Shown here in pieces: positions 2,597-32,000 of a DNA stretch of 32,000 nucleotides. The stretch's first letter is position 1. Each line of letters starts with the position of its first letter. Made by a program: the position numbers and the translations under genes. Location of the stretch: positions 2,340,001-2,372,000 of the forward strand of contig NZ_CP147990.1 in the NCBI RefSeq assembly GCF_037902255.1, read 5' to 3'. A model generated the notes under the pieces. That model was given only the letters and a program-made list of their open reading frames with translations, was not told where the DNA came from and searched no databases. This DNA comes from Candidatus Electrothrix sp. GW3-4. Its GTDB lineage: Bacteria > Desulfobacterota > Desulfobulbia > Desulfobulbales > Desulfobulbaceae.

Positions 2597-3820
2597 CTAC
2601 TTGTACTCCTCGGCCCGGCTGATAATAAACTCCTTCCAGGAAGGGTCATCAAAGGCATGGGCAATGGTGAAGATGTCTTTATCGCCGCGACCGGACATAT
2701 TGATAATAATCGCCTGATCCCGAGACATGGTCGGGGCCTCCTTGATCGCCTGAACAAAGGCATGGGAGGATTCCAGGGCCGGAATGATCCCTTCCCTCTG
2801 CATGGTCAGTTTCAGGGCCTCCAGCACCTCATCATCTGTTGCGGCCTCAAAGCGGACCCGTCCCTTTTCTCCCAGATCAGCCAGGATCGGGGAAACACCT
2901 ACATAGTCCAGTCCTGCGGCAATGGAATGGGTCTCCAGCATTTGGCCATCATCATTCTGAAGAAACATGGTCTTGTACCCCTGGGCCACCCCAGGGGTCG
3001 CCCGGTCGCCCACCATCCTGGAGGCATGTTCCTCGGTATCAATGCCCTTACCACCTGCTTCCACACCGACGAGCTCCACCTCTTCATGCTCCAGGAATCC
3101 CTGAAAGATGCCCATGGCATTGGAACCGCCACCGACACAGGCATAAACCCGATCCGGCAAGCCTTCGTGCTGCTCTTGGATCTGCTTATTTGCCTCAATG
3201 CCGACGATAGATTGAAACCAGGAGACCATCTCCGGGAAAGGGGCTGGGCCGCAGGCCGTACCAAAGACATAATGGGTGCTGTCCATATTGGTGACCCAAT
3301 CCCGAAAGGCCTCGTTAATAGCGTCCTTCAGGGTTCTGGAACCGTCCTTCACTGGCACAACTGTAGCTCCCAGCTTTTCCATCCAGAAGACATTGGGCCG
3401 CTGCCGGGCCACGTCCACTTCACCCATATAAATCGTGCAGTCAAACCCGAAGCGGGCCGCCATAGTGGCGGTGGCAACCCCGTGCTGCCCTGCCCCGGTC
3501 TCCGCGATGACCCGTTTCTTGCCCATGCGCTTAACCAGCAGGCCCTGCCCCATCACGTTATTGGCCTTGTGGGCACCGGTGTGGTTCAGATCTTCCCGCT
3601 TGATATAGATCCGCGCTCCACCCAGATGATCGGAGAGATTTTGAGCAAAGGTCAAAGGCGTAGGACGGCAGGAATAATTGCTCATCAGATCGACATATTC
3701 CTGCCAGAATTTCTCATCGGCTCGTGCCGCCGCATAGGCTTCATGTAATTCCGCAAAGGTCTGATGGAGCACTTCCGGGATGAACGCACCACCCCATTGG
3801 CCGAAATATCCTTTTTTCAT
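2597..3820 (-). CDS. trpB: tryptophan synthase beta chain (TrpB1 type)
   Basis: 407 aa. It has GQWGGAFIPEVL, the PLP-lysine block REDLNHTGAHKANN, ETGAGQHGVATA and GGGSNAMG. No trpA is adjacent. Confidence 0.95.
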   Translation of the reverse strand: MKKGYFGQWGGAFIPEVLHQTFAELHEAYAAARADEKFWQEYVDLMSNYSCRPTPLTFAQNLSDHLGGARIYIKREDLNHTGAHKANNVMGQGLLVKRMGKKRVIAETGAGQHGVATATMAARFGFDCTIYMGEVDVARQRPNVFWMEKLGATVVPVKDGSRTLKDAINEAFRDWVTNMDSTHYVFGTACGPAPFPEMVSWFQSIVGIEANKQIQEQHEGLPDRVYACVGGGSNAMGIFQGFLEHEEVELVGVEAGGKGIDTEEHASRMVGDRATPGVAQGYKTMFLQNDDGQMLETHSIAAGLDYVGVSPILADLGEKGRVRFEAATDDEVLEALKLTMQREGIIPALESSHAFVQAIKEAPTMSRDQAIIINMSGRGDKDIFTIAHAFDDPSWKEFIISRAEEYK

Positions 3821-3885
3821 AATCTGTTTTTTGTTCTATCGGTTATCAATTAAAATACAATTGCCTTATATTCCCTGAAAACTAC

Positions 3886-4572
3886 CTACTTTTTCTTGAG
3901 CTGCTGGAGATATTCCACTAACGCATAGACCTGAGTGGAGGGCATATCAGTGCCACCACTCTCGCAATGACGTTCAGCCCGCTTTGCATGAGTAATAGCG
4001 CCTGAAATGTCTTTTCTTATAACGTGATAAATATTTTTTATCCCGCCTTTTTCATAGGACGGCATATATTTCTTGAGATCAGCCATAACGCTGGCGCAGA
4101 TCGAGCCCCCTTTTACACTGAAATTCTTCGTCGTATAGGTAAAATGAAGAAGGAGCCAGAACTCAAAGCAGGGTACAGAGGTAATCGCGTATATGGGACA
4201 ACCACGTTTTTTCTTTTCCCGTTCTCTTCGGACGACATCAAGAGTTTCCTGATATGTTGGATGCTGATCCTTATCAAAGACACAGTAGACCCGATCATAC
4301 GGCTCGCCCTTCTCACGTTTATCTTTTGCGTATTCTTCCAGGGCCAGTTCCACCACATTACGAGGAGAGGAACCGGCTGTATTTTCTGCAATCCTGATGT
4401 TCGCCGTATTCAGTTGCAGATCATCAATCACGGCTTTAAAATAATCAGGTTCTGTCTTCTTCCCTTCGCAGACAATCAGCACCCGGTCATAGGGAGACCT
4501 TCTCGCCCCCTTTCGTTTAAAGGAAGCAGCGCTTCGGGCTTTACGCTTATGAAACAGCTGATCGCTGCCCAT
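3886..4572 (-). CDS. RloB-like / AbiLii-like Toprim-type protein
   Basis: 228 aa. VLIVCEGKKTEPDYF is the RloB-family hallmark (Toprim Glu), followed by an acidic VYCVFDKDQH (DxD-like) block. Its ATG (4572-4570) overlaps the stop of the upstream ATPase by 1 nt (TAATG), which implies translational coupling. Confidence 0.85.
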   Translation of the reverse strand: MGSDQLFHKRKARSAASFKRKGARRSPYDRVLIVCEGKKTEPDYFKAVIDDLQLNTANIRIAENTAGSSPRNVVELALEEYAKDKREKGEPYDRVYCVFDKDQHPTYQETLDVVRREREKKKRGCPIYAITSVPCFEFWLLLHFTYTTKNFSVKGGSICASVMADLKKYMPSYEKGGIKNIYHVIRKDISGAITHAKRAERHCESGGTDMPSTQVYALVEYLQQLKKK

Positions 4573-5840
4573 TAAAACCGAACCTCACCAATATAGGGCA
4601 AGGCTCCGAATCGGCCTTGCAGATAACCTTTTTCCAGGGCTTCCTGTTTTCGGGGATGAAAATCCGACAAGGGATAAAGCTGCGTTGCCTGATCGCCATC
4701 CTTCTCGGTAAACCAAATCTGATCCCGGCGCAGAATTTTTGCGTCTAATATAGAGGTATCATGGGTGGAAAAAATCAGCTGCCCATTTTGTTCATTAGCT
4801 TCCGAATCATGAATTAAAGAGAGCAGGAAGCGGACTAGATGGGGATGAAAGCTATTATCCAATTCATCAACAACCAGTACCCGCCCATTCTTTAACACAT
4901 CCAAGAGGGGAGCCGCATAAGAAAAAAGCTTTTGAGTTCCGTCAGACTCCTCTTCCAGGGGAAGCAAGCGGTTCTCTCCTTCCGCGCCTATATTATGCTG
5001 AAAGAAAACCTTCTTCACCGGTTTACCCAGCAAGTCCTTCTGAATAGCTTTTTTCACTTCATCAGGCATATCAGAGGGAAACCGTAAGCGATCAATCTCT
5101 TTCTCTTTGATTTCGATTCCATCAACCGCAATACCTGCCCCTTGCAATAAACTCAGAATGTCTTCATAACTCTCCCCTTTCTCACAGGAGCTTGCTGTAA
5201 ATCCTGGATCAAAGCTTTCTCCGTGCCTGATGATAATCAGCTTTTGAAACCAAGTAAAGAGTGGTTTCAACTGCTCGCTGTTCAGCTGGACCGCTGTGGA
5301 CAAAAAAAGGGCATTTGCTCTGGTTGACTCCTGCCATGTTTTCTTTTGGCCGGAAAACTTAGGACCAAAATACCACTCTTCCTCTTCTGTCTCTGGATTA
5401 TACGCCCGTTCAAACCAACGCTGAGCCCGGTTGGTTGGGTACGCAAACAACCATTCATGGACCACCCGCTCCCTGGTCACGGCAAATCCGTACTGATAGC
5501 GAATATCACCCTGAAGAAAAAAGACCTCAAACTCACTTGCAGTCGTCTCGCTTCCGGGATGAAGGAGAAAGGGCTTGCTCGTGATATGTTCTCCTTCCTG
5601 GCTTTCTTTTGAAGAGAAAACCACAAATTCCTGCATAAAATCAAGAGCATCGATAAAATTACTTTTTCCCGCCCCGTTCGCCCCATAGATAACTGATGAC
5701 CTGAGCAATCTCGGAAGCCCTTCAATAGGAGAGGGAAAAGAATTTTCTTCCTGGAGGTCTTTTGTTGCCCCGGCAGCCATGCTCAAGGTTTGGGATTCCA
5801 AAAAGGAGCGGTAATTTTTGACACTGAATTCGATAAGCAT
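4572..5840 (-). CDS. ABC/SMC-type AAA ATPase (AAA_21/RloA, AbiLi-like)
   Basis: Walker A YGANGAGKSNFIDAL, Walker B/D-loop VLVVDELDNSFHP and H-loop LIFSTHD. I place the start at the internal Met (MLIEFSVKNYRSF, ATG at 5840-5838). Family members begin with this beta-strand, and the 35-aa extension in the track ORF (to 5945) is hydrophobic junk. Confidence 0.85.
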   Translation of the reverse strand: MLIEFSVKNYRSFLESQTLSMAAGATKDLQEENSFPSPIEGLPRLLRSSVIYGANGAGKSNFIDALDFMQEFVVFSSKESQEGEHITSKPFLLHPGSETTASEFEVFFLQGDIRYQYGFAVTRERVVHEWLFAYPTNRAQRWFERAYNPETEEEEWYFGPKFSGQKKTWQESTRANALFLSTAVQLNSEQLKPLFTWFQKLIIIRHGESFDPGFTASSCEKGESYEDILSLLQGAGIAVDGIEIKEKEIDRLRFPSDMPDEVKKAIQKDLLGKPVKKVFFQHNIGAEGENRLLPLEEESDGTQKLFSYAAPLLDVLKNGRVLVVDELDNSFHPHLVRFLLSLIHDSEANEQNGQLIFSTHDTSILDAKILRRDQIWFTEKDGDQATQLYPLSDFHPRKQEALEKGYLQGRFGALPYIGEVRF

Positions 5841-6129
5841 GAAATGTACCTGGATTTTCGGTCTACTCAGGTAAAGCAGACAAACTAAGACGGCTTCAAA
5901 TAAACTTTCAACGTAAAAAATGCACAAAAAGTTCTTTTTTTGCAACTAAAATCATTCCCGACTATCTTTTATCAGATTGTTTCGTTCTGAATCAAGCAGC
6001 CAAATCTGACTTGCATCATTTCAAGTGTTCTTCGTTGATACCGGTATGTTTTTTCTTTTGTTTTTCCCTTTTTTCTGTTCCTATTGCCTTGACACCTTAA
6101 CCGTAAAAGTATTTACAGGATATTGAGCC

Positions 6130-9100
6130 TTGAACAGAAAAATACTCTTTCTTGCTGCCGCCCCACGGGATGATAAGAGACTGCAACTTTCTACCGAACT
6201 TCGAGAAATAAAGGAAGCACTACAGCGTTCCCCAAGAAGAGATGATTTCAATTTGATAGATACAGTGGCAGTGCGTGTCCAAGACTTGCGACGGGCCTTA
6301 CTGGCTCATGAGCCTCAAATTGTTCATTTCAGCGGTCATGGAACAACTACCGATTGCATATTGGAAAACCAAACAGGCAACACCCAACCTGTTGACAATA
6401 AAGCAATCGCTACTCTCTTCGGTTTATTCGCTAATTGTATTCAGTTCGTTATCTTGAACTCTTGTAATTCTGAAGCACTTGCTGAAAAAATTGCTGGGGC
6501 TATTCCCTACGTGGTCGGCATGAACGATGAAATCGATGATGAATCTGCAATACACTTCTCTACAGGATTTTACGATGCTTTAGGTGCAGGAAAAGATTAT
6601 GAGACCGCCTTTGAATTTGCCTGTAACGCGATTGAACTCTCCAATCTACCTGGAAAGGATATCCCTGTCCTAAAAAAAGGTAATCCAGAGGCTATTGTAA
6701 AATCGCATCCTCCTACAGGTCCTCAAAATACAGTTCCTGATCAGCAACAAATCGCACCTCAATTCACAGTCCTTCTCAGTGAACATATATCCAGCGAACT
6801 GGATGAGGTTACTCAGCTGTACTATGCCGGAAAGTTCAAAACAGCACTGGAGCAACTTCTCACCATAAAACAGGATCAGATACGCTGGAGTGCCTTAGAA
6901 AATGACAAAAAAGCTCAGGTGCTACGTATTGAGGCCAATCTGCTCCTGAGCTACGACAGCAATATTGACCTAGCTCAGCAGAGATCCGATGAAGCTGACA
7001 GGGTTTCACCTCCCCCACCCGGTTCGTCGGCCTTGCAGGCATTAATAACTTGGTCCAAATCTGGGCCTCAACAGGCTCTCCCATACCTGGAATCACCAGT
7101 CGCAGCTGAAGGCAAATTGCTCAAGGCGTGGCTACTGTCTGCTCTTGAACGCTTTGAGGAGGCCGACAACCTACTTGAGGGATTACCAGAACATGATTCT
7201 GCTATCCAAAGCGATGTATTCCGGCTACGAGCTATCATAAAATTATATGACCGGGAATTGGACAGCGCACTACTCTGTATTCAACGGGCAAGAAAACGCA
7301 CACCTGACAGCAACAAAGTAATTGAGACAGAGGGGATGCTGCTGTATTACAGCGCACTTTCTCCGGCAGTTGTTCCACAACAGCTTCAAGGCATACCTGA
7401 CCCTGTAGACTGGTTGGTTGTTCGCCATGACCTGCAAAGCCTTGAAAGGTTAAATCAAGCGGCTGAAAACTTCTGTACCCTTCTGGACACCTGCGAAACA
7501 AATCAAGAGCAGCAACGTAGCTGGGAGGTCTGGCGGCTGGCCTGTTTATCTTGCCATAAAGATCGCCTACCTGAAGCAGAAACCTATTGCCGCCATCTTC
7601 TGGATAAAGAGCCAACCCATGCCTACGCAATCGCTTGGGGCATTGTTCGACGCTTCCTCAATCAACAACATATCACCAAATGCATTTTTGCCCTTGAGGA
7701 ACAATTAACCACAGAAAAACCGAAAATCGGTGCCATTCTGAGTTTATGTGCGCTGTATAGAGAGGAAGAGCAAAATGATAAGGCATGTAGCTTACTGGAA
7801 ACTCATCAGGATATTTTTATACAGCAGAATCAGCTCCCGCTCTGGCAGGCATGGAAGGCACAAGCGTCCTGTGTTTCAACTGATACAGAGAGTGAAGTGT
7901 CAACAGAAGCGGACTTGAGCATCGGCGCAAAGCTTATATATCTGAAACAAGCTGCCACGATTAACAACGATTATAAAGAACTCTTTCGATACGCTGAGCA
8001 GTCTTTACAGGGAGAACTCTCACCGGACATCTTTTTAAATATATGCGTGTTTTTGAGTTATCAGAACGAGTGGAATTTTATTGCCGATCACGCCCTTGAA
8101 CTTGTCGAAAAAGGAGGAACGAGCGGAGCTGTAGAGCTGGCCGCCCAAGCCTGTTACGAAACAGATCGCTATAAAGAGTTACTGACAATTCTGACAGAAT
8201 ATACTTTTCTGTTTTCCGAAGGAAAATTGCCTCCGGGCTTGGAAAGGGCAAAAATCATGGCCCAACAAAGAGTCGGAGGTTCCGAACTGCCTAAGGCTGT
8301 TTTGGCGGCAGAAGCACTCGCTCAACAGACTGGTGAACTGATTGATCTTTTAAGGCTTGCTGACCTGCAATTATACCAAGGAAATATTGTTCAAGCTACG
8401 CACATAATATTACAGGCTGGTCAACAGCATAAGCTACCACCAAAACAAATTATTCATTATTCGCAGGTTATTGCCACAGAAAACAAAGAGGCTGCGGTTA
8501 AGCTTTTGACAACTTGCAAGCCCGAGGAACTCCCGAGCGAACTGCTTCCCGCCGTTTTCATGTTGAGCAATACGCTTGGGGTAGAGGATAAACTGGAACA
8601 ATTTCTGAGCCGATTTCATGAAGAATTGGCAGCCGGAATGATACCGGGAGTGCAAAAATTTACAGGAACAGACAAGCTGATTGAGCTGATTCAATCTTCA
8701 CAGCAACAGGCGCAACAAAGACAGCAATTATACGAACAAGGAAAAGTACCGATTCATCTCATTGCTGATCAGACTGCGCACTCACCTCTTCTCTCTCTTT
8801 ATCATGAATACCTGTCATATATGAAGCAAGATGGCGAGCTTGCCGGTTCGTCTTCTTTGTTCGTCCGGCATGGAGGAAGGGCAATAATCAGAGACTTCTC
8901 TGCACAGCCATCGGAATGGAATCTCCATCTGGACATCACAGCTCTGTTGCTCTCTACACATCTTGGCATATTGGACAAGGTAGAGCAATGTTTCGGCACC
9001 CTGCATCTTCCAGCTCCCTTGATGCCGCTGTTGCAAAAAATGTTGCAACAAGCCGAACCTGCCCAGGCTGGCAGGGTGAGGGCCATGCAAAAAATCCTGC

Positions 9101-12100
9101 AAGACGTTGAGGACGGAAGAGTAAAATCGGCCCCGGAAACATCCTCACTCAAAGAACAGCTTCTCTCTCGTAACGCTCTGTTTCTGGACTGGACAGACCC
9201 GTTAAGTGATGATGACCAGTTACCCGATGAACTGCGCATCAACTGCCGCTACTTGACGGAGACTCTTTTTCACTTAGGCAGGATATCACAAGTCACCTTT
9301 GAGGATGCTGTCAACAAGTTAGGTCAAGAAGGATTACGATGTGTCTGCTATGCTGATATTGCTGAAGGACAAGATATCATTTGCCAGCATGGCACAGCGG
9401 TATTACTGGCGGAAGCAGGAATTTGGGAAACTTTCAGAAATAACTGCCATGTTCTGTTGCAGCAAGAGGATATAGTTCATCTCAGAAGTGAAATTCAACA
9501 GGCCGAGAACTCCAGAAAAAATATCAAATGGCTCAAAACGATTCGAGATCGACTGTGCTATGGGATTGAAAACGGTATTTACCAGACCATGTCTCTTCCT
9601 TCCGAAAAACAGAACAAAGACATGCATCGCCTTATAAATACCGGAGAACTTAACACGGCCTGCCTGCTTTCACTGCTGTCTATCCCTCAAGAAAAACAAG
9701 CTCAAGTTTGGTGCGATGACCGTTTTGTCAGTGCGTACCCCCGCCTCAACGGCCATCCTACAATGACGATTTTCGATATCCTGAAGGCCCTGAAAGAGTA
9801 TGATTACCTAACGGAGAAAGAATATTACGCTACCCTACAGACTATTCGCAAAAGCAACATTCGTTTCATTCCCTTGGAAGCAGCTGAGGTTATCTACTGG
9901 CTCAGAAATGCACCGATTGCAAATGGGATGGTCAAGGAAACACCTGAGCTCTCCGTGCTTCGACGATACAGTTCCATCTGTCTTGGCGACACTTCCGGGT
10001 TGCAACCGCCAACAGAGGCGCCTGCGTCCAATCCGAATGGAGAACTCCTTTTTATCGTCCAACACAACATCGCAGCGATCAACGCGATAATGACAGCTTG
10101 GGCCTCTGATGATGAACATACCAACAATGTCATAGCTTGGTCTGACTGGATTCTGCACAATCTATATTCAGAATACTATCAACCGATACCTGCTTGGATA
10201 CAGACAAATAGTGATTTTCAGCGATTTCTTAGTTTTTGGTATGACGCCTTTTTGGTAAACGCCATCCCTCTTTCTCAGAAAAAAACGAATGATGAACCCT
10301 CTCGCCGCTCCCGCTATTTAGCATGGATCTCTGAACGCTTGCTGGATAGACGAATTGAGACTGATGAGGAACTACGCACAAAAGTCGCAACAAAGTTCTT
10401 TTCATCAATAAAGCATTTTCTCCAGCTCAACGATACGGAAGCTGAAACAGGTTCGTTGGGGAAAGATCACGAAATCCATCGCGCGACACAGAGCCTTCTG
10501 CGTCAATTTGTTCGCGAATGTCCAGAGCTTATTCGTGAACAACTGTATACATCACAGGAAATGCGGGAACTGCTTGGATTGGTCGAGAACGACAAAAATG
10601 CCTTAATTCCTCTTGGTGGCTATTATTTTTATATCAAAAACTTCAACAAGGCTATCAGCAAAGCAACGAAAAAGAAGAAAGGAAAAATATATACCTGGAA
10701 CAAGGAACACCGATTCTCTGTTACACTTGATCATGTCTCAGAAAATACTAACACTCCCATCTTTCTGTTCAAGAATGCAGACCGACAACTTTCATTTCAT
10801 CTGAACAGCTCTGAAAACGGTGTCCTCTTACCAACAGCATCAGAGAGAATGCAGTTTCTCAAACGACAAGCAGGATTATTTGATCTTCCCAAAAAACAGC
10901 AGGCCAAAGAGTTTGCCAGGATTGAAGAACAGCGTACTCCTTGGGATCGTATTACGGTAATAAGTGAGCTGCTTCAAGATAGCAATACCTACTTCTATCA
11001 ACAGCTCGCTGAATCAATCAGGAAAAGGAAAAGCTTTAAGATACCAGAGTTGCTCCCACCCTCTGGCAATTCTATGCTACGCTTTCTCAGACTGGAAGAT
11101 GAGCAGGATATTCAGGTGGAACTGTGTCAAGCAGCCCAAAGGATGATAAAAGATAGAGGGATCAAAGAAACCCTACTACGATTTTCCACATTACCCTGCC
11201 CTTTGCCCTCACCAGTAGAGCACCATCTTTCCGGGCTTTCCACGAAGCAACGAGACAAGCTCTTTGCAGAATGGCAGACAGAAATTTCTTCTCCGCTATC
11301 GCTCTTCCACTACCTCAGGGCTGTCAGCCAATATCAAAGTCGGTATCAGAAAAAGACATCAAAGCTCCTTGAGGATTTTCTGATTGATCCAGATAGAGGC
11401 CGATTAGTTCAGTTTTTTCTCCTGCTTGTCAATTTAATGAAGAATATGTTCAGCACTTGGCATGAAACCAGAGAACTACGGCCTGCAACTCGGTTGGCTC
11501 TTGCTTGGTCACATGCAGATCGTATTCTGGCGGTTTTCATTTCTATTGGTACGCCCGATGAGAGCATGCTAAAACGTTTCAAGGGAAATATACCACCCTG
11601 TTCAATATCCGATTTTATAGATGAATCGAACAATGGCGTTGATATTGCCGATCCGAAAGTCTTGCCTCATGATTTCTTTATACTCCAAGGTCTTTCTTTT
11701 GCACTTGGCGAGACCAGCAGCAAACTCCTGACAGAAAAGGCCTGCGAAGAGATCACGAAACTCTGTACTCTTGAGAAGATTGAAAACATGGACACGCTTC
11801 TACCCAATCCTCTTTTACTCCGCGACACATTATTGTCCACGAACAAGCTTAATGCTTTCCTTCAACATAATTTTAAAAGAATTTATCAAGATATAGACAA
11901 ACCTGAACTTACTCAATGGTGCAGCCGAGATTCCCAGAAAAAAATCGTGACGGATGCAATACGCAACGAAAAATTACCTTTCCTAACAGCATGGTTGTCT
12001 GTTGAATCGGTGCTTCCTTACCACAAAGTACATAACGATTTGAAAGACGAGCTTGTGAGTTGGCTGACAAAAATCAGTCTATCTGAATTATGGAAATCAG

Positions 12101-12477
12101 ACGAAAAGCTTGCCCAACGAGTCACATTGCAGCTTGCCTTGTTTGTGCAACATCTCAAGTCAACTGAACTGAAAGAAAAAGTTGAAAACGAATTAATTGC
12201 TTTAGCCAGGATTCTTCACGAAAGCAACTCAGCGTCAAAAGAAGAGCCAGTTAAGGAAGCTTTGCTTGATGCTGTTCTCAGAGTAGCATTGTTCGATGGC
12301 ACAGAATTAGGTTTTGCCGAGAATACGGCCCGTCTTTTTAAAGACATTGCAGAGGTAAATCCTCATCTCGACAAAATGATGCGAGTATCTTACATCCCCA
12401 GCCTTGCTGAGGAGCTTCCAATGGAGCCATCCAGAAAGTTGTGGTCACTTATAATCAAGTTGAGATCAGCAGAATAA
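6130..12477 (+). CDS. 2115-aa giant protein: N-terminal caspase/CHAT-like His-Cys module, then TPR-like helical repeats, then a long unassigned helical region
   Basis: One uninterrupted 6.3-kb ORF with a TTG start 9-10 nt after AGGA. The N-terminus KILFLAAAPRDD...IVHFSGHG (H70, nt 6337-6339)...VILNSCNSE (C112, nt 6463-6465)...VVGMNDEIDDESAIHFSTGFYDALGAG matches the clan CD peptidase dyad order. No GxxxxGK[ST] was found anywhere by eye. The next in-frame Met is residue 131, so the TTG start is needed to keep the conserved N-terminus. Confidence 0.8.
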   Translation: MNRKILFLAAAPRDDKRLQLSTELREIKEALQRSPRRDDFNLIDTVAVRVQDLRRALLAHEPQIVHFSGHGTTTDCILENQTGNTQPVDNKAIATLFGLFANCIQFVILNSCNSEALAEKIAGAIPYVVGMNDEIDDESAIHFSTGFYDALGAGKDYETAFEFACNAIELSNLPGKDIPVLKKGNPEAIVKSHPPTGPQNTVPDQQQIAPQFTVLLSEHISSELDEVTQLYYAGKFKTALEQLLTIKQDQIRWSALENDKKAQVLRIEANLLLSYDSNIDLAQQRSDEADRVSPPPPGSSALQALITWSKSGPQQALPYLESPVAAEGKLLKAWLLSALERFEEADNLLEGLPEHDSAIQSDVFRLRAIIKLYDRELDSALLCIQRARKRTPDSNKVIETEGMLLYYSALSPAVVPQQLQGIPDPVDWLVVRHDLQSLERLNQAAENFCTLLDTCETNQEQQRSWEVWRLACLSCHKDRLPEAETYCRHLLDKEPTHAYAIAWGIVRRFLNQQHITKCIFALEEQLTTEKPKIGAILSLCALYREEEQNDKACSLLETHQDIFIQQNQLPLWQAWKAQASCVSTDTESEVSTEADLSIGAKLIYLKQAATINNDYKELFRYAEQSLQGELSPDIFLNICVFLSYQNEWNFIADHALELVEKGGTSGAVELAAQACYETDRYKELLTILTEYTFLFSEGKLPPGLERAKIMAQQRVGGSELPKAVLAAEALAQQTGELIDLLRLADLQLYQGNIVQATHIILQAGQQHKLPPKQIIHYSQVIATENKEAAVKLLTTCKPEELPSELLPAVFMLSNTLGVEDKLEQFLSRFHEELAAGMIPGVQKFTGTDKLIELIQSSQQQAQQRQQLYEQGKVPIHLIADQTAHSPLLSLYHEYLSYMKQDGELAGSSSLFVRHGGRAIIRDFSAQPSEWNLHLDITALLLSTHLGILDKVEQCFGTLHLPAPLMPLLQKMLQQAEPAQAGRVRAMQKILQDVEDGRVKSAPETSSLKEQLLSRNALFLDWTDPLSDDDQLPDELRINCRYLTETLFHLGRISQVTFEDAVNKLGQEGLRCVCYADIAEGQDIICQHGTAVLLAEAGIWETFRNNCHVLLQQEDIVHLRSEIQQAENSRKNIKWLKTIRDRLCYGIENGIYQTMSLPSEKQNKDMHRLINTGELNTACLLSLLSIPQEKQAQVWCDDRFVSAYPRLNGHPTMTIFDILKALKEYDYLTEKEYYATLQTIRKSNIRFIPLEAAEVIYWLRNAPIANGMVKETPELSVLRRYSSICLGDTSGLQPPTEAPASNPNGELLFIVQHNIAAINAIMTAWASDDEHTNNVIAWSDWILHNLYSEYYQPIPAWIQTNSDFQRFLSFWYDAFLVNAIPLSQKKTNDEPSRRSRYLAWISERLLDRRIETDEELRTKVATKFFSSIKHFLQLNDTEAETGSLGKDHEIHRATQSLLRQFVRECPELIREQLYTSQEMRELLGLVENDKNALIPLGGYYFYIKNFNKAISKATKKKKGKIYTWNKEHRFSVTLDHVSENTNTPIFLFKNADRQLSFHLNSSENGVLLPTASERMQFLKRQAGLFDLPKKQQAKEFARIEEQRTPWDRITVISELLQDSNTYFYQQLAESIRKRKSFKIPELLPPSGNSMLRFLRLEDEQDIQVELCQAAQRMIKDRGIKETLLRFSTLPCPLPSPVEHHLSGLSTKQRDKLFAEWQTEISSPLSLFHYLRAVSQYQSRYQKKTSKLLEDFLIDPDRGRLVQFFLLLVNLMKNMFSTWHETRELRPATRLALAWSHADRILAVFISIGTPDESMLKRFKGNIPPCSISDFIDESNNGVDIADPKVLPHDFFILQGLSFALGETSSKLLTEKACEEITKLCTLEKIENMDTLLPNPLLLRDTLLSTNKLNAFLQHNFKRIYQDIDKPELTQWCSRDSQKKIVTDAIRNEKLPFLTAWLSVESVLPYHKVHNDLKDELVSWLTKISLSELWKSDEKLAQRVTLQLALFVQHLKSTELKEKVENELIALARILHESNSASKEEPVKEALLDAVLRVALFDGTELGFAENTARLFKDIAEVNPHLDKMMRVSYIPSLAEELPMEPSRKLWSLIIKLRSAE

Positions 12478-18257: not shown

Positions 18258-18860
18258 TTACTGTTCGATGTATTGACGAATCATGTGGATAGCCTCAGCA
18301 GAATCCCATTCAGCAGGCCCTTGGACCTTCTCTCGGATAATACCCTCTTTATCCAGGATAAAGGTCTCCGGCACCCCAGTGATGCCGTAGTTCATCCCCA
18401 CCTGATTACCTTCATCAATAAGAATGGGCAGGGTGATATCAAGCTGTTGGGCAAAGTCTTTGGCATTGCGGGCCTCATCACCATAGAGAACGGCCAGCAT
18501 CTTGAACTGATCCTGCGGTAGGGTGTTATAGAGATTCTGCATGGAAGGCATTTCGCTCACACAGGGAGGACACCAAGTGGCCCAGAAATTAAGAAAAACC
18601 ACCTGTCCCTTGAGCTGGGAAAGGGTCCAGGTTCGACCCTCAATATCGGTGAGGGTGAAATCCGGGGCCGGATTGCCCTGCACTGGCGGTCCATCGGGCT
18701 GCATGGTGACAACCCGTGGCATGGGTTCTTCGGATATCTTCTTCAGTGGAGTCTTCTCCTTGTCCTCCTGACCGCAGGCAGCAAGAAAGAACGTAAGACC
18801 AAGGATCAGGAGAAAAAATACTGTTTTTTGCATATCAACAAATTGCTTCAACGAAGGCAT
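18258..18860 (-). CDS. TlpA/ResA-like thiol:disulfide oxidoreductase, probable lipoprotein
   Basis: It has the redoxin motif VVFLNFWATWCPPCVSEMP and the lipobox-like signal LTFFLAAC. An alternative start at MQKTVFF (18833) is equally plausible. Confidence 0.85.
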   Translation of the reverse strand: MPSLKQFVDMQKTVFFLLILGLTFFLAACGQEDKEKTPLKKISEEPMPRVVTMQPDGPPVQGNPAPDFTLTDIEGRTWTLSQLKGQVVFLNFWATWCPPCVSEMPSMQNLYNTLPQDQFKMLAVLYGDEARNAKDFAQQLDITLPILIDEGNQVGMNYGITGVPETFILDKEGIIREKVQGPAEWDSAEAIHMIRQYIEQ

Positions 18861-23126: not shown

Positions 23127-23228
23127 TCCTGTGTCAGAAAGTTGTAAAGCCACAGCCGTCGTGAGGCGGTGTCGGAAAGCCACGGGTCTCCAGCGAGGAG
23201 GCAGCCGGGTTGTCTTCTTTCATTTTTT
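23127..23228 (+). promoter_or_regulatory. candidate GEMM-I-like (cyclic dinucleotide) riboswitch with a terminator-like expression platform
   Basis: Two AAAGCC boxes (23146-23151, 23176-23181) flank a hairpin capped by the GNRA tetraloop GUGA (CCGUC-GUGA-GGCGG, 23156-23169). These are followed by GGAAAGCCACGGGUC...GGCAGCCGGGUUGUC. From memory this resembles the GEMM-I blocks GCAAAGCC-CGGG and GGUAGC-GGGGUUACC. A possible terminator is GAGGAGGCA (23195-23203) / UGUCUUCUU (23211-23219, 3 G-U pairs), then a run of six Ts (23223-23228). No covariance-model search was run. Confidence 0.35.
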
Positions 23229-23665: not shown

Positions 23666-24646
23666 ATGAAAAAAGTATTGAGAACGTTGCTGATCGTCAG
23701 TGTGTTCATGTTGTACAGCCAATCAATTTTTTGTGCAGAAGAAATTTCGAATGAAGCGGAACCGACTGACGACAATACTGTGACAGATGTGGTTAAGGAG
23801 ACATCAGAAAACAAGTTTAATGATCGCGAACGGCTTGTCCAGACGCTCCTGGGAAACCTGCTCCCTGATGAAAGTGAGTCCCCCGATAATACGGGCAACA
23901 TTGAGAAGCCGGGTAATGATGACGATCCGCTAACGGAAGCAGAGGCGACGGCCTTTGTTGAACAGCTATCGAACGAACAGGTTTTCGCGTTCAATCGTTC
24001 ATTGAACAACGCAGTGAATAATGGGCTGGAGATCAAATTCGACAAGGAGGAGCTGGAAAAGGCTGAGAATTATACCGGCCAGCAGATTAATGCGCTGACC
24101 AAGGCCATGGAAGAAGAGGCCAAATTTCTAGCCTTGTTCGAGAAAACCGGCAATGAGAAATTTCAGGAACGGGCTGAGCGTCAAAAAGAAAAATTTTTAT
24201 CTAAAATAGATAAATTCCAAGACACTGACGATTCAGCATCAGCACTAGAGTCCGGTGATGCAGTGAAAAATAACGTAAAAGAAGAGGCCAAGGCAAGGGC
24301 AAAAGATACTGCCAAGCAAGCTGCACAGAAGGCTGCCAAGGAAGCGGCCAAAGCAGCTGCAAAGGAAGCTGCTCATGAGGCAGCCCAAGAGGTTGTTAAA
24401 GAAGCGGCCAACACGGCGAAAAAAGAGAGTGTGAAGGAAAGACAGGCAGAGAAAATAGTCGAAAGAGAGGCCGCTAAAGCCGCACGAGACGAGGCTAAAG
24501 ATGCTGCCAAAGCCGAGAAGGATGCAGCGAAAGATGCTGCCAAAACCGAGAGGGATGCAGCGAAAGCCGAAAGAGACGCTGCGAAAGATGCTGCCAAAAC
24601 CGAGAGGGATGCAGCGAAAGCCGAAAAGACCGCTAACAAGAAATAA
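23666..24646 (+). CDS. secreted acidic protein with a C-terminal Lys/Ala/Glu-rich amphipathic repeat region
   Basis: A strong RBS AAGGAGG lies 7 nt upstream. The signal peptide is MKKVLRTLLIVSVFMLYSQSIFCAEE. The C-terminal ~110 aa are AKxAAK-type repeats (AKDAAKTERDAAKAERDAAK...). The antisense ORFs here are composition artefacts. Confidence 0.75.
   Translation: MKKVLRTLLIVSVFMLYSQSIFCAEEISNEAEPTDDNTVTDVVKETSENKFNDRERLVQTLLGNLLPDESESPDNTGNIEKPGNDDDPLTEAEATAFVEQLSNEQVFAFNRSLNNAVNNGLEIKFDKEELEKAENYTGQQINALTKAMEEEAKFLALFEKTGNEKFQERAERQKEKFLSKIDKFQDTDDSASALESGDAVKNNVKEEAKARAKDTAKQAAQKAAKEAAKAAAKEAAHEAAQEVVKEAANTAKKESVKERQAEKIVEREAAKAARDEAKDAAKAEKDAAKDAAKTERDAAKAERDAAKDAAKTERDAAKAEKTANKK
24491..24634 (+). 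repeat. 54-bp (18-codon) tandem repeat inside the secreted-protein gene
   Basis: Copies at 24527-24580 and 24581-24634 share their first 46 nt (GCGAAAGATGCTGCCAAAACCGAGAGGGATGCAGCGAAAGCCGAAA). A more diverged partial copy precedes them. Confidence 0.7.
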
Positions 24647-24689: not shown

Positions 24690-25985
24690 ATGAAGATGAA
24701 GAAACAAGACTCGAAGAAAACTTTCCAAATTTTGATATTGGTTGCCCTGCTTGCATGCATGGCAGGCGTAGCTTGCGCTGCAACAGATGGGCAGGCGGCA
24801 TTTGACAACGGATTGACATTGTTCAAAAATAGGGCGTTCAACAAGGCTCGACAATCGTTTGCAGCCTCTCTTCAGGCCAATCCCGATAATGCAGAGGCCC
24901 ATTTTTTTACAGGACTTGCACTCCAGGAAGAAGAACAATTCAGTCAATCAATTCCTTATCTTGAAGAGGCTATGATGCTGGATCCCGACTATGCCCAGAT
25001 GTCGCTCTATTATATAGGACGTGCCTATTACCAGACCGAACAGGGTCCACTTGCCCAGGAGAGCTTACGACAAGCCGTCGCTGTGGATCCGACATCAGAA
25101 ATCGGTCAATTAGCCCAAGATCTTTCAGCTGCTGGCTTGACAGGTAGTGGCCAGACCAATAAGCGATGGTGGTTGCAAGCTGAAATGGGCTATGAGTACA
25201 ACGACAACCTTACCGTGGAACAGACCGATACAGTCAGTGACGAGGCGGATCATGCCGCAATCATTGAGATCGGCGGAGGGTTCAAGTTGCTGAATCAACT
25301 ATTTAACGGGGAAGTAACCTATGATTTTTACCAGAGCCTGTACAGCGAATATTCTCAATTCAATATGCAGTCCTACCGCGTTGGCGCTGCTGCGAGTCGC
25401 GACTTTGACATCTGGGACCTGAGCCTTGACTATGATTATACATATCTCTTTTTAGACAGTGACGAATTCATGGAGACACAAAGCCTCATGCCTGCTATCG
25501 GGCTGTCTTTTGCTGATCTGTACAGCAATGTAAGTTATATCTTGCAAACAAAAGATTTTTTAAACGATGAAGATGAACACCGGAACGCCATAAATCATTC
25601 CGGCGGCTTGGACCTTTATCTCCTTTCTTTAAAAATGATAGACATGATGTCTGTCGGGATTCGTTATGAATGTGAAGATGCCGAGGATAACGAGCTGGAT
25701 TACACAGGCCCTGTTTTCTCCGGTTCACTGCGGTTCACAATGCCTTGGGGCATCACGGTGCGCTCTTCCTATAAGTATCAGAGGAAACAGTACGAGAATA
25801 TGACGGTCGATATTGGCGAGGAACGGGAAGATAGTAAACAGACGCTCGGCGTAACGCTAACAAAGAAATTGCCTTATAGACTGAAACTGAAGGGCAGCTA
25901 TAAATATATTGACAGCGATTCCAACGCCCCCGTATCCGATTATCAGGAAAATACCGTTTTCCTGAGTTTGACGTATTCACTGTAA
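24690..25985 (+). CDS. outer-membrane protein: signal peptide, TPR domain and a ~14-strand beta-barrel (Slam/DUF560-like or YaiO-like architecture)
   Basis: 431 aa. The signal peptide ends ACAATDGQ. TPR-like hairpins span roughly aa 35-135 (FDNGLTLFKNRAFNKARQSF...NAEAHFFTGLAL...YYIGRAYYQ). After that come ~14 alternating-hydrophobic amphipathic strands (e.g. WWLQAEMGYEY, VTYDFYQSLY, LSLDYDYTYLF, VRSSYKYQRK, VFLSLTYSL). It lies 43 nt downstream of the previous gene. Confidence 0.7.
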   Translation: MKMKKQDSKKTFQILILVALLACMAGVACAATDGQAAFDNGLTLFKNRAFNKARQSFAASLQANPDNAEAHFFTGLALQEEEQFSQSIPYLEEAMMLDPDYAQMSLYYIGRAYYQTEQGPLAQESLRQAVAVDPTSEIGQLAQDLSAAGLTGSGQTNKRWWLQAEMGYEYNDNLTVEQTDTVSDEADHAAIIEIGGGFKLLNQLFNGEVTYDFYQSLYSEYSQFNMQSYRVGAAASRDFDIWDLSLDYDYTYLFLDSDEFMETQSLMPAIGLSFADLYSNVSYILQTKDFLNDEDEHRNAINHSGGLDLYLLSLKMIDMMSVGIRYECEDAEDNELDYTGPVFSGSLRFTMPWGITVRSSYKYQRKQYENMTVDIGEEREDSKQTLGVTLTKKLPYRLKLKGSYKYIDSDSNAPVSDYQENTVFLSLTYSL

Positions 25986-29948: not shown

Positions 29949-29977
29949 TTGACAAAGCCTGTACTGCATTTTAGGAT
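29949..29977 (+). promoter_or_regulatory. putative sigma70-type promoter of the rhodanese/oxidoreductase genes
   Basis: TTGACA (29949-29954), a 17-nt spacer, then TAGGAT (29972-29977), about 150 nt upstream of the start at 30131/30137. Confidence 0.35.
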
Positions 29978-30130: not shown

Positions 30131-30970
30131 GTGAATATGCGTTGGAAACAATTTCTTACTCCGGTCAAGTCACTCAATGCACCGGAGACCAGAAAGTACC
30201 TGAATGATCTTTCCGTTGATGACTATAACATCATAGATGTACGCCAACCTGGTGAGTATAAAAGTGGACATATCCCAGGGGCAAAACTCATCCCAGTGGC
30301 GGAACTGGCCGAGCGCAGCAAAGAGCTTGACCCGGAAAAGCCCACCGTAGTCTACTGAGCCATTGGCGGGCGCAGCCGGGTTGCTGCCCAGATGCTGGCA
30401 GGTAAAGGGTTTGCCGAGGTAATCAATATGGCTGGCGGGATCAAGGCCTGGAACAGTGATACGGCCATTGGCCCTGAGGACACTGGCATGGCCCTGTTCT
30501 CGGGCAAGGAAGAGATCGGGGAGGTCCTCCTGATCGCCTATGCCTTAGAGGCCGGGCTTCAGGATTTCTACACCTTGATGCAAGAGCAGGTCAGGCAGGA
30601 GGAGGTCAGGTCTCTGTTCAGTAAGCTCAGCGCCATTGAGGTGAAGCATCAGGATCGGATCTTTGCTGAATACCAGCAGATAACAGCGCCCCCCCTGAGC
30701 CGGGAAGAATTTGAGCGTAAGGCAGAGGTCCAGGCTATGGAGGGCGGCCTGACCACTGAGGAGTACCTGGCCCTCTACCCCACTGATATGGAGGTGGCTA
30801 CGGAAGTACTTTCTCTGGCCATGGGCATTGAGGCCCAGGCCCTTGACCTCTATCTCCGGGCGGCTGCCAACTGTTCCGATGGAGCGACCCAGCAGACCCT
30901 TCTTCGTATTGCCGAGGAAGAGCGCACCCACCTCAAACTACTGGGCGATCTGATGGACGAAAGAGCATGA
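30131..30970 (+). CDS. selenocysteine-containing rhodanese fused to a ferritin/rubrerythrin-like diiron domain (TGA 30356-30358 read as Sec)
   Basis: Track ORFs 30131..30358 and 30392..30970 share one frame and are separated only by one TGA and 11 sense codons. The read-through junction is PTVVY-U-AIGGRSRVAAQMLAGKGFAEVINMAGGIKAWN, which puts the TGA at the catalytic Cys of the rhodanese CxxGxR[ST] loop. The C-terminal half has E...ExxH...E...ExxH (ALEAG, AIEVKH, GIEAQ, EERTH). The start is GTG 30131 or ATG 30137. Confidence 0.75.
30368..30389 (+). promoter_or_regulatory. candidate bacterial SECIS hairpin
   Basis: GGGCGCAGC (30368-30376) / loop CGGGUU (30377-30382) / GCUGCCC (30383-30389): 7 bp with one bulged C and a GGU in the apical loop. 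It starts 9 nt after the UGA. Confidence 0.5.
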
Positions 30971-31005: not shown

Positions 31006-32000
31006 ATGAGCAAACGACTGGTAATTGCTGGTGGCGGCCATGCCCATATGCTGACCCTGGCCCACCTGGAGGACTTTGTTGCCAAGGGCTTTGAGGTGAC
31101 AGTGATTGGCCCGGACAGCCACCATTACTATTCCGGCATGGGACCGGGCATGTTGGGCGGCACCTACCGCCCCGAGGAGATCCGCTTTGCCACCCAGCAG
31201 CTGGTGGAGAACAAGGGCGGCCTGTTTATCCAGGCCAAGGTAACCGGTATCCAGCCTCTTGAACGGGCCGTCCGGCTCAGCTCTGGTGAGGAGGTGCCCT
31301 ATGATGTCCTGTCCTGCAACCTGGGCAGCCAGGTCCCGGCGGATCTGATCAAGGGACCGCTGGAGGATATCTTTCTGGTCAAACCCATTGAGCGGCTGTT
31401 CAAGGCCAGGCAACGGATCCTTGAACTGGGGGCCAAGCAAAGGATAAGGATCGCCGTGGTAGGCGGCGGCCCCTCTGCGGTGGAGATCGCGGGCAATATC
31501 TGGCGGCTGGGCCAGGAGCCCGGTATGCAGGAACCGGCCATCACCGTCTTTGCCGGTCGTTCCCTGATGCCCCATCATTCGCCAGGGGTGCGCCAGCGGG
31601 CCGTGGCCTCCCTTGCTGCCCGCTCCATCAAGGTCATCAGTAACACCCGGGTGCAACAGATCCATCAGCGCCAGCTCTTTGATAGCGAGGGCATCACCCA
31701 CAAGTTCGATATCATCTTTGTGGCGGTGGGGGTGCAGCCCAACAGGCTCATTGGCGAGTCCGGCATCCCCACTGGCCCCCAGGGCGGCATGCTGGTGAAC
31801 CGCTATCTGCAAAGCATTAAGCATACGCGCATCTTTGGTGGCGGGGATTGCATTGACTTCCAGGACAGGCCCTTGGACAAGGTGGGGGTCTATGCGGTCC
31901 GCCAGAACCCCATTCTCCGGCATAACCTGATGGCAGCCCTGACCGGGGAGCGGATGCAGGCCTTTGCACCTGGGGGCAAGTATCTCCTCATCTTCAACCT
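31006..32000 (+). CDS. FAD-dependent pyridine nucleotide-disulfide oxidoreductase (NDH-2/SQR-like; resembles the SelD-associated TIGR03169 type); 3' end off window
   Basis: Absent from the ORF track because it is open to the window edge. RBS GAGGA lies 6 nt before ATG 31006. Hand translation gives MSKRLVIAGGGHAHMLTLAHLEDFVAKGFEVTVIGPDSHHYYSGMGPGMLGG...RIAVVGGGPSAVEIAGNI...IFGGGDCID, with two Rossmann GxGxxG/A motifs and the GD motif. The 357-aa minus ORF 30850..31923 is its antisense shadow. Confidence 0.85.
   Translation, partial: MSKRLVIAGGGHAHMLTLAHLEDFVAKGFEVTVIGPDSHHYYSGMGPGMLGGTYRPEEIRFATQQLVENKGGLFIQAKVTGIQPLERAVRLSSGEEVPYDVLSCNLGSQVPADLIKGPLEDIFLVKPIERLFKARQRILELGAKQRIRIAVVGGGPSAVEIAGNIWRLGQEPGMQEPAITVFAGRSLMPHHSPGVRQRAVASLAARSIKVISNTRVQQIHQRQLFDSEGITHKFDIIFVAVGVQPNRLIGESGIPTGPQGGMLVNRYLQSIKHTRIFGGGDCIDFQDRPLDKVGVYAVRQNPILRHNLMAALTGERMQAFAPGGKYLLIFN

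Follow-up and report, generated by a model that had tools for sequence, protein, structure and literature searches.

In the genome of Candidatus Electrothrix sp. GW3-4, a stretch of 32,000 nucleotides (nt; contig NZ_CP147990.1, positions 2,340,001 to 2,372,000; hereinafter the window) harbors a single gene, coding for a rhodanese domain fused to a ferritin-like domain with a predicted diiron site (30137–30970, + strand; 277 amino acids (aa)), which conventional gene calling breaks into two. The break falls at a TGA codon (30356–30358) occupying the catalytic position of the rhodanese domain: this codon is recoded and held in place by selection, the product is a two-domain protein and the gene is accompanied by a conserved flavoprotein neighbor. 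Comparisons of DNA and protein sequences across the family make it very probable that the TGA encodes selenocysteine (Sec).

The internal TGA across the family

The original prediction, made from the letters of the window, held that two open reading frames (ORFs), 30131–30358 and 30392–30970 on the + strand, share a frame and are parted by one TGA, which lies exactly where the active-site Cys of a rhodanese belongs. Translation of 30131–30970 bears out the former point: the frame is identical and is interrupted once, in the context PTVVY-TGA-AIGGRSRVAAQ. The latter is upheld by alignment: the proposed Sec codon (30356–30358, +; VVY-U-AIGGRS) falls on the invariant Cys of YCAIGGRS in 119 of the 119 scorable full-length database homologs. 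Counted from the ATG at 30137, the gene has 277 codons and a product of ~31 kDa; this start is more likely than the alternative GTG at 30131, since the homologs, 275–281 aa in length, begin at MRWKQF. The gene is terminated by another TGA (30968–30970); thus, of the two UGA codons on the one mRNA, the former would be recoded and the latter would terminate, a difference that calls for a local signal at the former. Further, the Logan contigs of runs SRR28154588 and SRR28154589 match the window base for base, TGA included, and the identity of the codon in two independent run assemblies argues against a read or assembly error confined to a single one.

The universal presence of Cys at this column in the database proteins is a consequence of ORF-calling bias, for the DNA shows otherwise. 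Across 108 related loci, taken from JGI metagenomes and the genomes of GTDB species, the catalytic column is occupied by TGA in 71 and by TGC or TGT in 37, i.e., 66 and 36 distinct 63-nt contexts, respectively, thereby confirming that Sec and Cys forms pair at the same column. The TGA carriers include Ca. Electrothrix aarhusensis, Ca. E. laxa (a closed genome), the cultured isolate Desulforhopalus singaporensis DSM 12130, Desulfarculus and several other lineages of Thermodesulfobacteriota. All 71 TGA-bearing genes have exactly one internal stop, followed by a downstream frame of ~200 codons that is intact up to the normal C-terminus. The residues after the TGA form an invariant AxGGRSR motif, whose codons +1, +3 and +4 differ only at third positions (GCN, GGN and GGN, with GCC, GCT, GCG and GCA all seen at +1); such purely synonymous variation implies that these codons are translated. 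Likewise, in comparisons of the window with four TGA-bearing Electrothrix orthologs, the ratio of nonsynonymous to synonymous substitution rates (dN/dS) is 0.04–0.08 upstream and 0.04–0.11 downstream of the TGA. As TGA also serves as the stop of three further window genes with Pfam support, and an internal TGA is found in no other gene therein, the genetic code is standard. Judged by the standard comparative criteria for selenoproteins, as used in PMC1088965, the internal TGA makes a strong case for Sec.

A neighbor-joining tree of 100 distinct proteins, with states reconstructed by Fitch parsimony, has ~16 switches between Sec and Cys and a root state of Sec. Hence, Sec looks ancestral in this rhodanese/diiron family, with Cys having replaced it about 16 times.

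The effect of the TGA on the existing annotation is as the original prediction anticipated, namely a gene split in two. At the locus of the window itself, the Logan calls are a 73-aa Rhodanese protein and a 180-aa Rubrerythrin protein. In GenBank, the post-TGA fragments from Electrothrix (database proteins P0122, P0130 and P0145) have names of their own: those of Ca. Electrothrix aarhusensis and Ca. E. laxa, of 192 aa, are labeled “Rubrerythrin”, and that of Ca. Electrothrix sp. ATG1 “sulfurtransferase, partial”. Such fragments account for 89 of the 120 best matches to the C-terminal ORF; they start 2–24 codons past the TGA, in most cases at the conserved Met located 12 codons past it. For the fusion protein, none of the NCBIfam models attains its cutoff score, which fits with the split seen in GenBank.

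The downstream stem-loop and rival readings of the TGA

A stem-loop resembling the bacterial selenocysteine insertion sequence (SECIS) is found within the coding sequence just past the TGA (30361–30394, +), as judged from folds, pair counts and codon choice. In the register shared by the family (TGA at alignment columns 7–9), it comprises a lower stem of 4 bp (30361–30364 with 30391–30394; columns 12–15 with 42–45), an upper stem of 7 bp (30370–30376 with 30383–30389; columns 21–27 with 34–40) and a G-rich apical loop of 6 nt (30377–30382), which reads CGGGUU in the window and CGKGUN in the family. This hairpin is the exact minimum-energy structure of three members (L026, L008 and L025). The window has one mismatch in the family register, and its own fold adopts a shifted register (30368–30389) with 9 pairs, a bulged U, a CGG loop and an energy of -13.3 kcal/mol. 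The original prediction had placed a SECIS-like hairpin 9 nt downstream of the TGA: its position and shape stand, with the fold of the window beginning at 30368, i.e., 9 nt past the codon, whereas comparisons with shuffles and recodings speak against its being thermodynamically exceptional.

The more telling evidence comes from codon choice, as shown by counts of pairs and codons over 66 Sec and 36 Cys sequences. Ala at +9 is encoded by GCT in 58/66 of the former as against 7/36 of the latter (Fisher p = 6e-12); the U of this GCT forms a pair with the A in the Ser codon at +6 (AGC), thereby closing the stem. Pair 22/39 is canonical in 36/66 Sec as against 4/36 Cys forms, with six of the cases being double changes from C-G to A-U (an AGR Arg codon with a GCU Ala codon). 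In the clade comprising L019–L022 and L055, four synonymous sites have changed together to give an equivalent, register-shifted hairpin (GAGCCGC-GUG-GCGGCUC). Further, where a Cys form has kept GCT, it tends to be one of those nearest to Sec forms (p = 0.04), a pattern that fits relaxed constraint after the loss of Sec. Like known bacterial SECIS elements, the stem-loop lies inside the ORF, here starting 9–13 nt after the UGA, and presents a G-rich apical loop that starts ~18 nt after the UGA; unlike them, it shows no sequence similarity or Rfam model match, and the encoded peptide accounts for much of its capacity to pair. Taken together, a candidate SECIS is plausible and supported, short of proof. 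Folding energy was considered as a further line of evidence and dropped, as the Sec forms are not more stable than the Cys forms.

Several observations weigh against Sec decoding. The hairpin has z-scores of about -1 or weaker relative to dinucleotide shuffles, with ten representatives all weaker than about -1.2. Over the 39 nt after the codon, the mean minimum free energy (MFE) is -13.8 kcal/mol for Sec forms versus -15.9 kcal/mol for Cys forms; the latter fold at least as stably because GGRSRVAAQ is intrinsically palindromic when encoded in a GC-rich genome. When the MFE of the same 39 nt was compared with that of 300 synonymous recodings per sequence, the Sec forms proved only marginally better, with no more than 3% beating 95% of their recodings. 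RNAalifold on the 66 Sec and 36 Cys sequences returned no meaningful consensus, and an Rfam search over 30330–30430, at the gathering threshold and at E <= 10, returned chance matches and no SECIS family. The Sec-specific codon counts are themselves partly confounded by shared ancestry. As for the decoding machinery, selA, selB, selC and selD are all absent from the window and the fetched loci, to which the search was confined: Pfam detects no sel gene among 20 genes of the window, and ARAGORN, run on the window and on 42 loci, no tRNA-Sec. Close Electrothrix relatives (P0001–P0007 and L002, the last with TGC) have Cys at the catalytic position, which shows that Sec is dispensable. Finally, the case for Sec is comparative throughout.

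These points have to be set against what the other readings of the TGA would entail. Were it a real stop, whether in a pseudogene, through a recent nonsense mutation or from an assembly error, nothing functional would lie past codon 73. One base separates TGC from TGA, close relatives (L002 and P0001–P0007) have TGC and annotation pipelines treat TGA as a stop. Yet the identical TGA recurs in independent assemblies and in 66 distinct contexts across orders of Desulfobacterota, not one of the 71 genes has a second stop or a frameshift, and the downstream dN/dS of 0.04–0.11 is that of a constrained protein, leaving the probability of this reading next to negligible. A subtler version would have translation end at the TGA and restart at a nearby ATG or GTG, yielding a 73-aa stub and a free “rubrerythrin” of 180–201 aa. 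The conserved Met 12 codons past the TGA (QM-LAGKGF), the presence of a GTG or ATG two codons past it in some relatives and the abundance of fragments among the best database matches (the aforesaid 89/120) could all be so explained. Such a split would, though, cut the rhodanese domain through its active-site loop; moreover, the 11 codons from the TGA to the Met (AIGGRSRVAAQ) are invariant as protein while varying synonymously, and are hence translated, although in the window there is no start codon between the TGA and this stretch. With the Cys homologs being single 276-aa chains, we find two separate proteins scarcely credible.

There is also the possibility that the TGA is read as a standard amino acid (Cys, Trp or Gly), be it by near-cognate suppression or a reassigned code. 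A hairpin that is not thermodynamically exceptional is what such a reading would expect; still, TGA ends three other genes of the window as well as the fusion gene itself, the window has no other internal TGA, and within the family TGA occurs only at the catalytic Cys column in the classic Sec/Cys pattern, in host lineages that are selenoprotein-rich. Low-efficiency suppression would also leave the ~16 independent Sec/Cys switches and the retention of the hairpin-closing codon unexplained; this reading is thus very unlikely. We therefore favor a mechanism in which the TGA at 30356–30358 would be decoded as Sec by the bacterial SelB/tRNA-Sec system, the insertion probably being guided by the stem-loop that directly follows the UGA within the gene.

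This mechanism would be in keeping with the selenoprotein counts in supplementary file 3 of PMC5029168, which gives 8–16 for Desulfobulbus, Desulfocapsa and Desulfotalea, relatives of cable bacteria within the Desulfobulbaceae, as well as 21 for strain MLMS-1 and 5 for Desulfarculus baarsii. In the window, a scan for TGA-interrupted frames yielded no second selenoprotein candidate, and in the literature searched we found nothing relevant on selenium use in cable bacteria or Electrothrix.

Domain architecture, gene neighborhood and other window features

With the internal TGA read as Cys, Pfam recovers two domains in the fusion protein: Rhodanese (PF00581; 30200–30457, +; residues 24–109; E 8.5e-22), with the active-site loop U/C-A-I-G-G-R-S, and a ferritin-like four-helix domain of the rubrerythrin family (PF02915; 30521–30952, +; residues 131–274; E 1.3e-9, 39 bits versus a cutoff of 22.8). 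The putative diiron ligands of the latter, E140, E170/H173, E234 and E264/H267 in the 279-aa numbering, are invariant in alignments A1 and A4. The AlphaFold2 model of a Cys ortholog (P0001; 82% identical, pLDDT 80) comprises an α/β rhodanese domain (residues 1–107), a low-confidence linker (108–125) and a helical bundle on four long helices (127–276). Foldseek matches this model to solved rhodanese domains with a root-mean-square deviation of 1.7–2.1 Å, the nearest being 3tp9 (a β-lactamase-fold/rhodanese protein), 3icr (CoADR-RHD), 5ve3 (the persulfide dioxygenase-rhodanese fusion, PRF) and 3nta (the NADH-dependent persulfide reductase, Npsr); the C-terminal domain matches thioferritin (2vzb), a DPS-like protein (8w1e) and a P. 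furiosus structure (2fzf). Thus, the N-terminal domain has the α/β fold of a rhodanese, with the catalytic position opening a six-residue CxxGxR loop, and the C-terminal one the ferritin-like four-helix bundle of a rubrerythrin with predicted diiron ligands. The fusion protein has no rubredoxin-like Fe(Cys)4 domain, as the chain ends right after helix 4 and has no CxxC pairs; it is therefore better described as having an “erythrin”-type domain than as a rubrerythrin proper.

The original prediction of a fused E/ExxH/E/ExxH diiron domain is thereby substantiated by the Pfam score, the invariant ligands and the four modeled helices; its accompanying remark, that the fusion could not be named, does not survive. 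The partner is Pfam Rubrerythrin/ferritin-like, and the two-domain architecture is that of a large existing family, for which JGI uses the product name “rhodanese-related sulfurtransferase/rubrerythrin”. The nearest proteins, at 76–82% identity, are from Candidatus Electrothrix (cable bacteria of the Desulfobulbaceae), and the best 120 database matches are all 269–304 aa in length and all have both Pfam domains. An exhaustive search (E <= 1e-30) recovers 232 clusters at 50% identity, mostly of 270–290 aa and matching at full length. The wider family retains the active-site Cys and the two ExxH motifs, both of the latter being found in 102 of 123 divergent representatives.

The fusion gene is followed, after a gap of 35 nt, by a gene for a flavin adenine dinucleotide (FAD)-dependent pyridine nucleotide-disulfide oxidoreductase (Pfam Pyr_redox_2; 31006–32000, +), which is cut by the end of the window and is complete, at 370 aa, in a related locus (L117). 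Given the short gap, the two genes are probably co-transcribed; no terminator-like site was found between them. The best family for the flavoprotein is NCBIfam TIGR03169 (“Nterm_to_SelD”), which it matches over the full length with 226–252 bits (252 for the complete ortholog) against a cutoff of 310; hence, by the NCBI threshold it is a related subfamily lying outside TIGR03169. In some organisms, flavoproteins of the TIGR03169 family are fused to SelD. Among the loci with enough downstream sequence, the flavoprotein directly follows the fusion gene in 52/63 Sec and 13/26 Cys loci, the median distance between the two genes being 39 nt. The sole invariant Cys of the flavoprotein lies in the GGGDC FAD motif. 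We found no other conserved gene in the neighborhood. Distant members of the family lack the flavoprotein and instead have directly upstream a gene for a membrane FA_hydroxylase, itself a diiron protein (L019, 5172–5960; L025, 5158–5952; members 42–46% identical), which suggests that this distant branch has a different partner.

Upstream of the fusion gene, the 470-nt intergenic region has a weak promoter-like site from a consensus scan (TTGACA-17-TAGGAT; 29949–29977, +), the scan giving 2 sites versus 1.4 expected in shuffles. Past the flavoprotein gene in L117, the same strand codes for a 358-aa protein with no detectable domain, a TPMT/TehB-like methyltransferase and a 174-aa protein (2609–4885). 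The last two are conserved in a close relative (L002), in which the 358-aa protein has only a partial match at another position. The TPMT/TehB-like family is linked to the methylation of selenium and tellurium; we did not use the methyltransferase as a link to selenium, as it is conserved in one close relative only.

The remainder of the window presents further features. An RloB protein (3886–4572, -) and an AAA_21/AbiEii-like ATPase (4572–5945, -) adjoin a 2115-aa protein with CHAT and HTH_upstream_double_PIN domains (6130–12477, +), and 3886–12477 looks like a defense island. A c-di-GMP-I riboswitch aptamer (23139–23217, +; Rfam RF01051, 51.1 bits, above the gathering score) lies ~450 nt upstream of a 326-aa ORF with no Pfam match (23666–24646), which is followed by a TPR/SlipAM protein (24690–25985). 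A 200-aa AhpC/TSA-redoxin (TlpA-like) protein (18258–18860, -) has no in-frame TGA; the related “Prx-like thiol:disulfide oxidoreductases” have been recognized as a selenoprotein family.

Known relatives, possible function and implications

Rhodanese-type selenoproteins have been predicted since 2005, and catalogs list forms 1–5, two of them with a UxxG motif (PMC13188914), in agreement with the original statement that rhodanese-related sulfurtransferases are a reported bacterial selenoprotein family; the Desulfobacterota symbionts of Olavius have them among their most abundant selenoproteins. The protein of the window resembles the cataloged forms in having Sec for the catalytic Cys, in the UxxG motif (here U-A-I-G), in its Desulfobacterota hosts and in being predicted from Sec/Cys pairs together with a bacterial SECIS, here a candidate one. 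It differs in that the catalogs index the rhodanese Pfam alone, with ferritin and rubrerythrin having 0 occurrences therein. Their “form 2” (representatives MBM9537886.1 and MCY3690685.1), compared by description only, may equal the two-domain family; further, as the family is abundant in the genomes that the catalog authors analyzed, the rhodanese entries of those catalogs probably include it already. Two curated rhodanese-domain selenoprotein families, NF041203 (rhodanese_LYCAU, CxU) and NF045694 (TsoB, a rhodanese/DsbD fusion), differ from the fusion protein in both the Sec motif and the fusion partner, and it scores 34 bits versus a cutoff of 115 against the former and 18 bits versus 805 against the latter.

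Among solved structures, CoADR-RHD (3icr), Npsr (3nta) and PRF (5ve3) have the most similar rhodanese domains, with a CxxGxR loop, and in them the rhodanese works with a Pyr_redox_2 flavoprotein or an iron enzyme. Those enzymes use Cys for catalysis and have the flavoprotein or mononuclear-iron dioxygenase fused to the rhodanese; here, the TIGR03169-type flavoprotein is a separate neighboring gene, the fused partner is a four-helix bundle with a predicted diiron site and the catalytic residue would be Sec. With the rubrerythrin/erythrin proteins (PF02915; the erythrin domain of MbfA; thioferritin 2vzb), the fusion protein shares the four-helix bundle and the E, ExxH, E, ExxH ligand order; unlike them, it has no rubredoxin FeS4 domain and its metal binding is predicted, while no characterized member has an N-terminal rhodanese. 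Although Sec-rhodaneses have been cataloged and selenoproteins are common in the phylum, several elements appear unreported in the literature searched, where rhodanese, rubrerythrin and selenocysteine together retrieved nothing relevant: (i) the diiron fusion of a Sec-rhodanese; (ii) the predominance and probable ancestry of Sec in its family; (iii) the link to a SelD-associated flavoprotein family; (iv) the presence of a Sec-rhodanese/diiron gene in cable bacteria.

In the fusion protein, Sec very probably takes the place of the catalytic Cys in a single-domain rhodanese whose loop is of the CxxGxR type, and a flexible linker connects this rhodanese to a four-helix domain with the full E/ExxH/E/ExxH ligand set. 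As to function, we advance the following as a plausible mechanism. The selenol may carry sulfane sulfur, or else selenium, in the form of a selenosulfide or perselenide, with electron exchange linking NAD(P)H and the flavoprotein to the Sec site, the diiron center or both. In this respect, the module could be a split analog of the NADH-dependent persulfide reductases, wherein the flavoprotein is fused to the rhodanese. A persulfide-type function is suggested by the closeness of the rhodanese domain to those of CoADR-RHD, Npsr and PRF, together with the conserved flavoprotein neighbor; what counts against it is that this flavoprotein lacks a conserved redox-active Cys pair. An equal alternative is the detoxification of peroxide or O2 by the diiron domain, fed by the flavoprotein.

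Going a step further, one might speculate that the Sec-rhodanese/diiron protein and the TIGR03169-like flavoprotein constitute an undescribed two-gene redox module, a proposal that we put forward tentatively and consider unlikely as it stands. In one version, the flavoprotein would make or reduce a protein-bound selenosulfide or perselenide, which the diiron site would process, thus forming a diiron counterpart of the units combining SQR with a persulfide-dioxygenase-rhodanese; in the other, selenium would be delivered to SelD.

The recoded TGA bears, in the first place, on how this family is recorded. About two thirds of a family widespread in Desulfobacterota is affected by the mis-split, with no NCBIfam model to rescue it: the cable-bacteria records and most metagenome calls present a free “rubrerythrin” and a rhodanese stub in lieu of what is very probably one selenoprotein, and the rubrerythrin counts in cable-bacteria genomes are probably inflated by this artifact. 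In biological terms, the finding predicts that cable bacteria decode Sec, and it points to a catalytic selenol joined to a predicted diiron center, beside a member of a SelD-associated flavoprotein family. Should the two-gene module prove true, it would provide a function for the flavoprotein family that is elsewhere fused to SelD, and would mean that selenium is required for the handling of sulfur in cable bacteria and many sulfate reducers.

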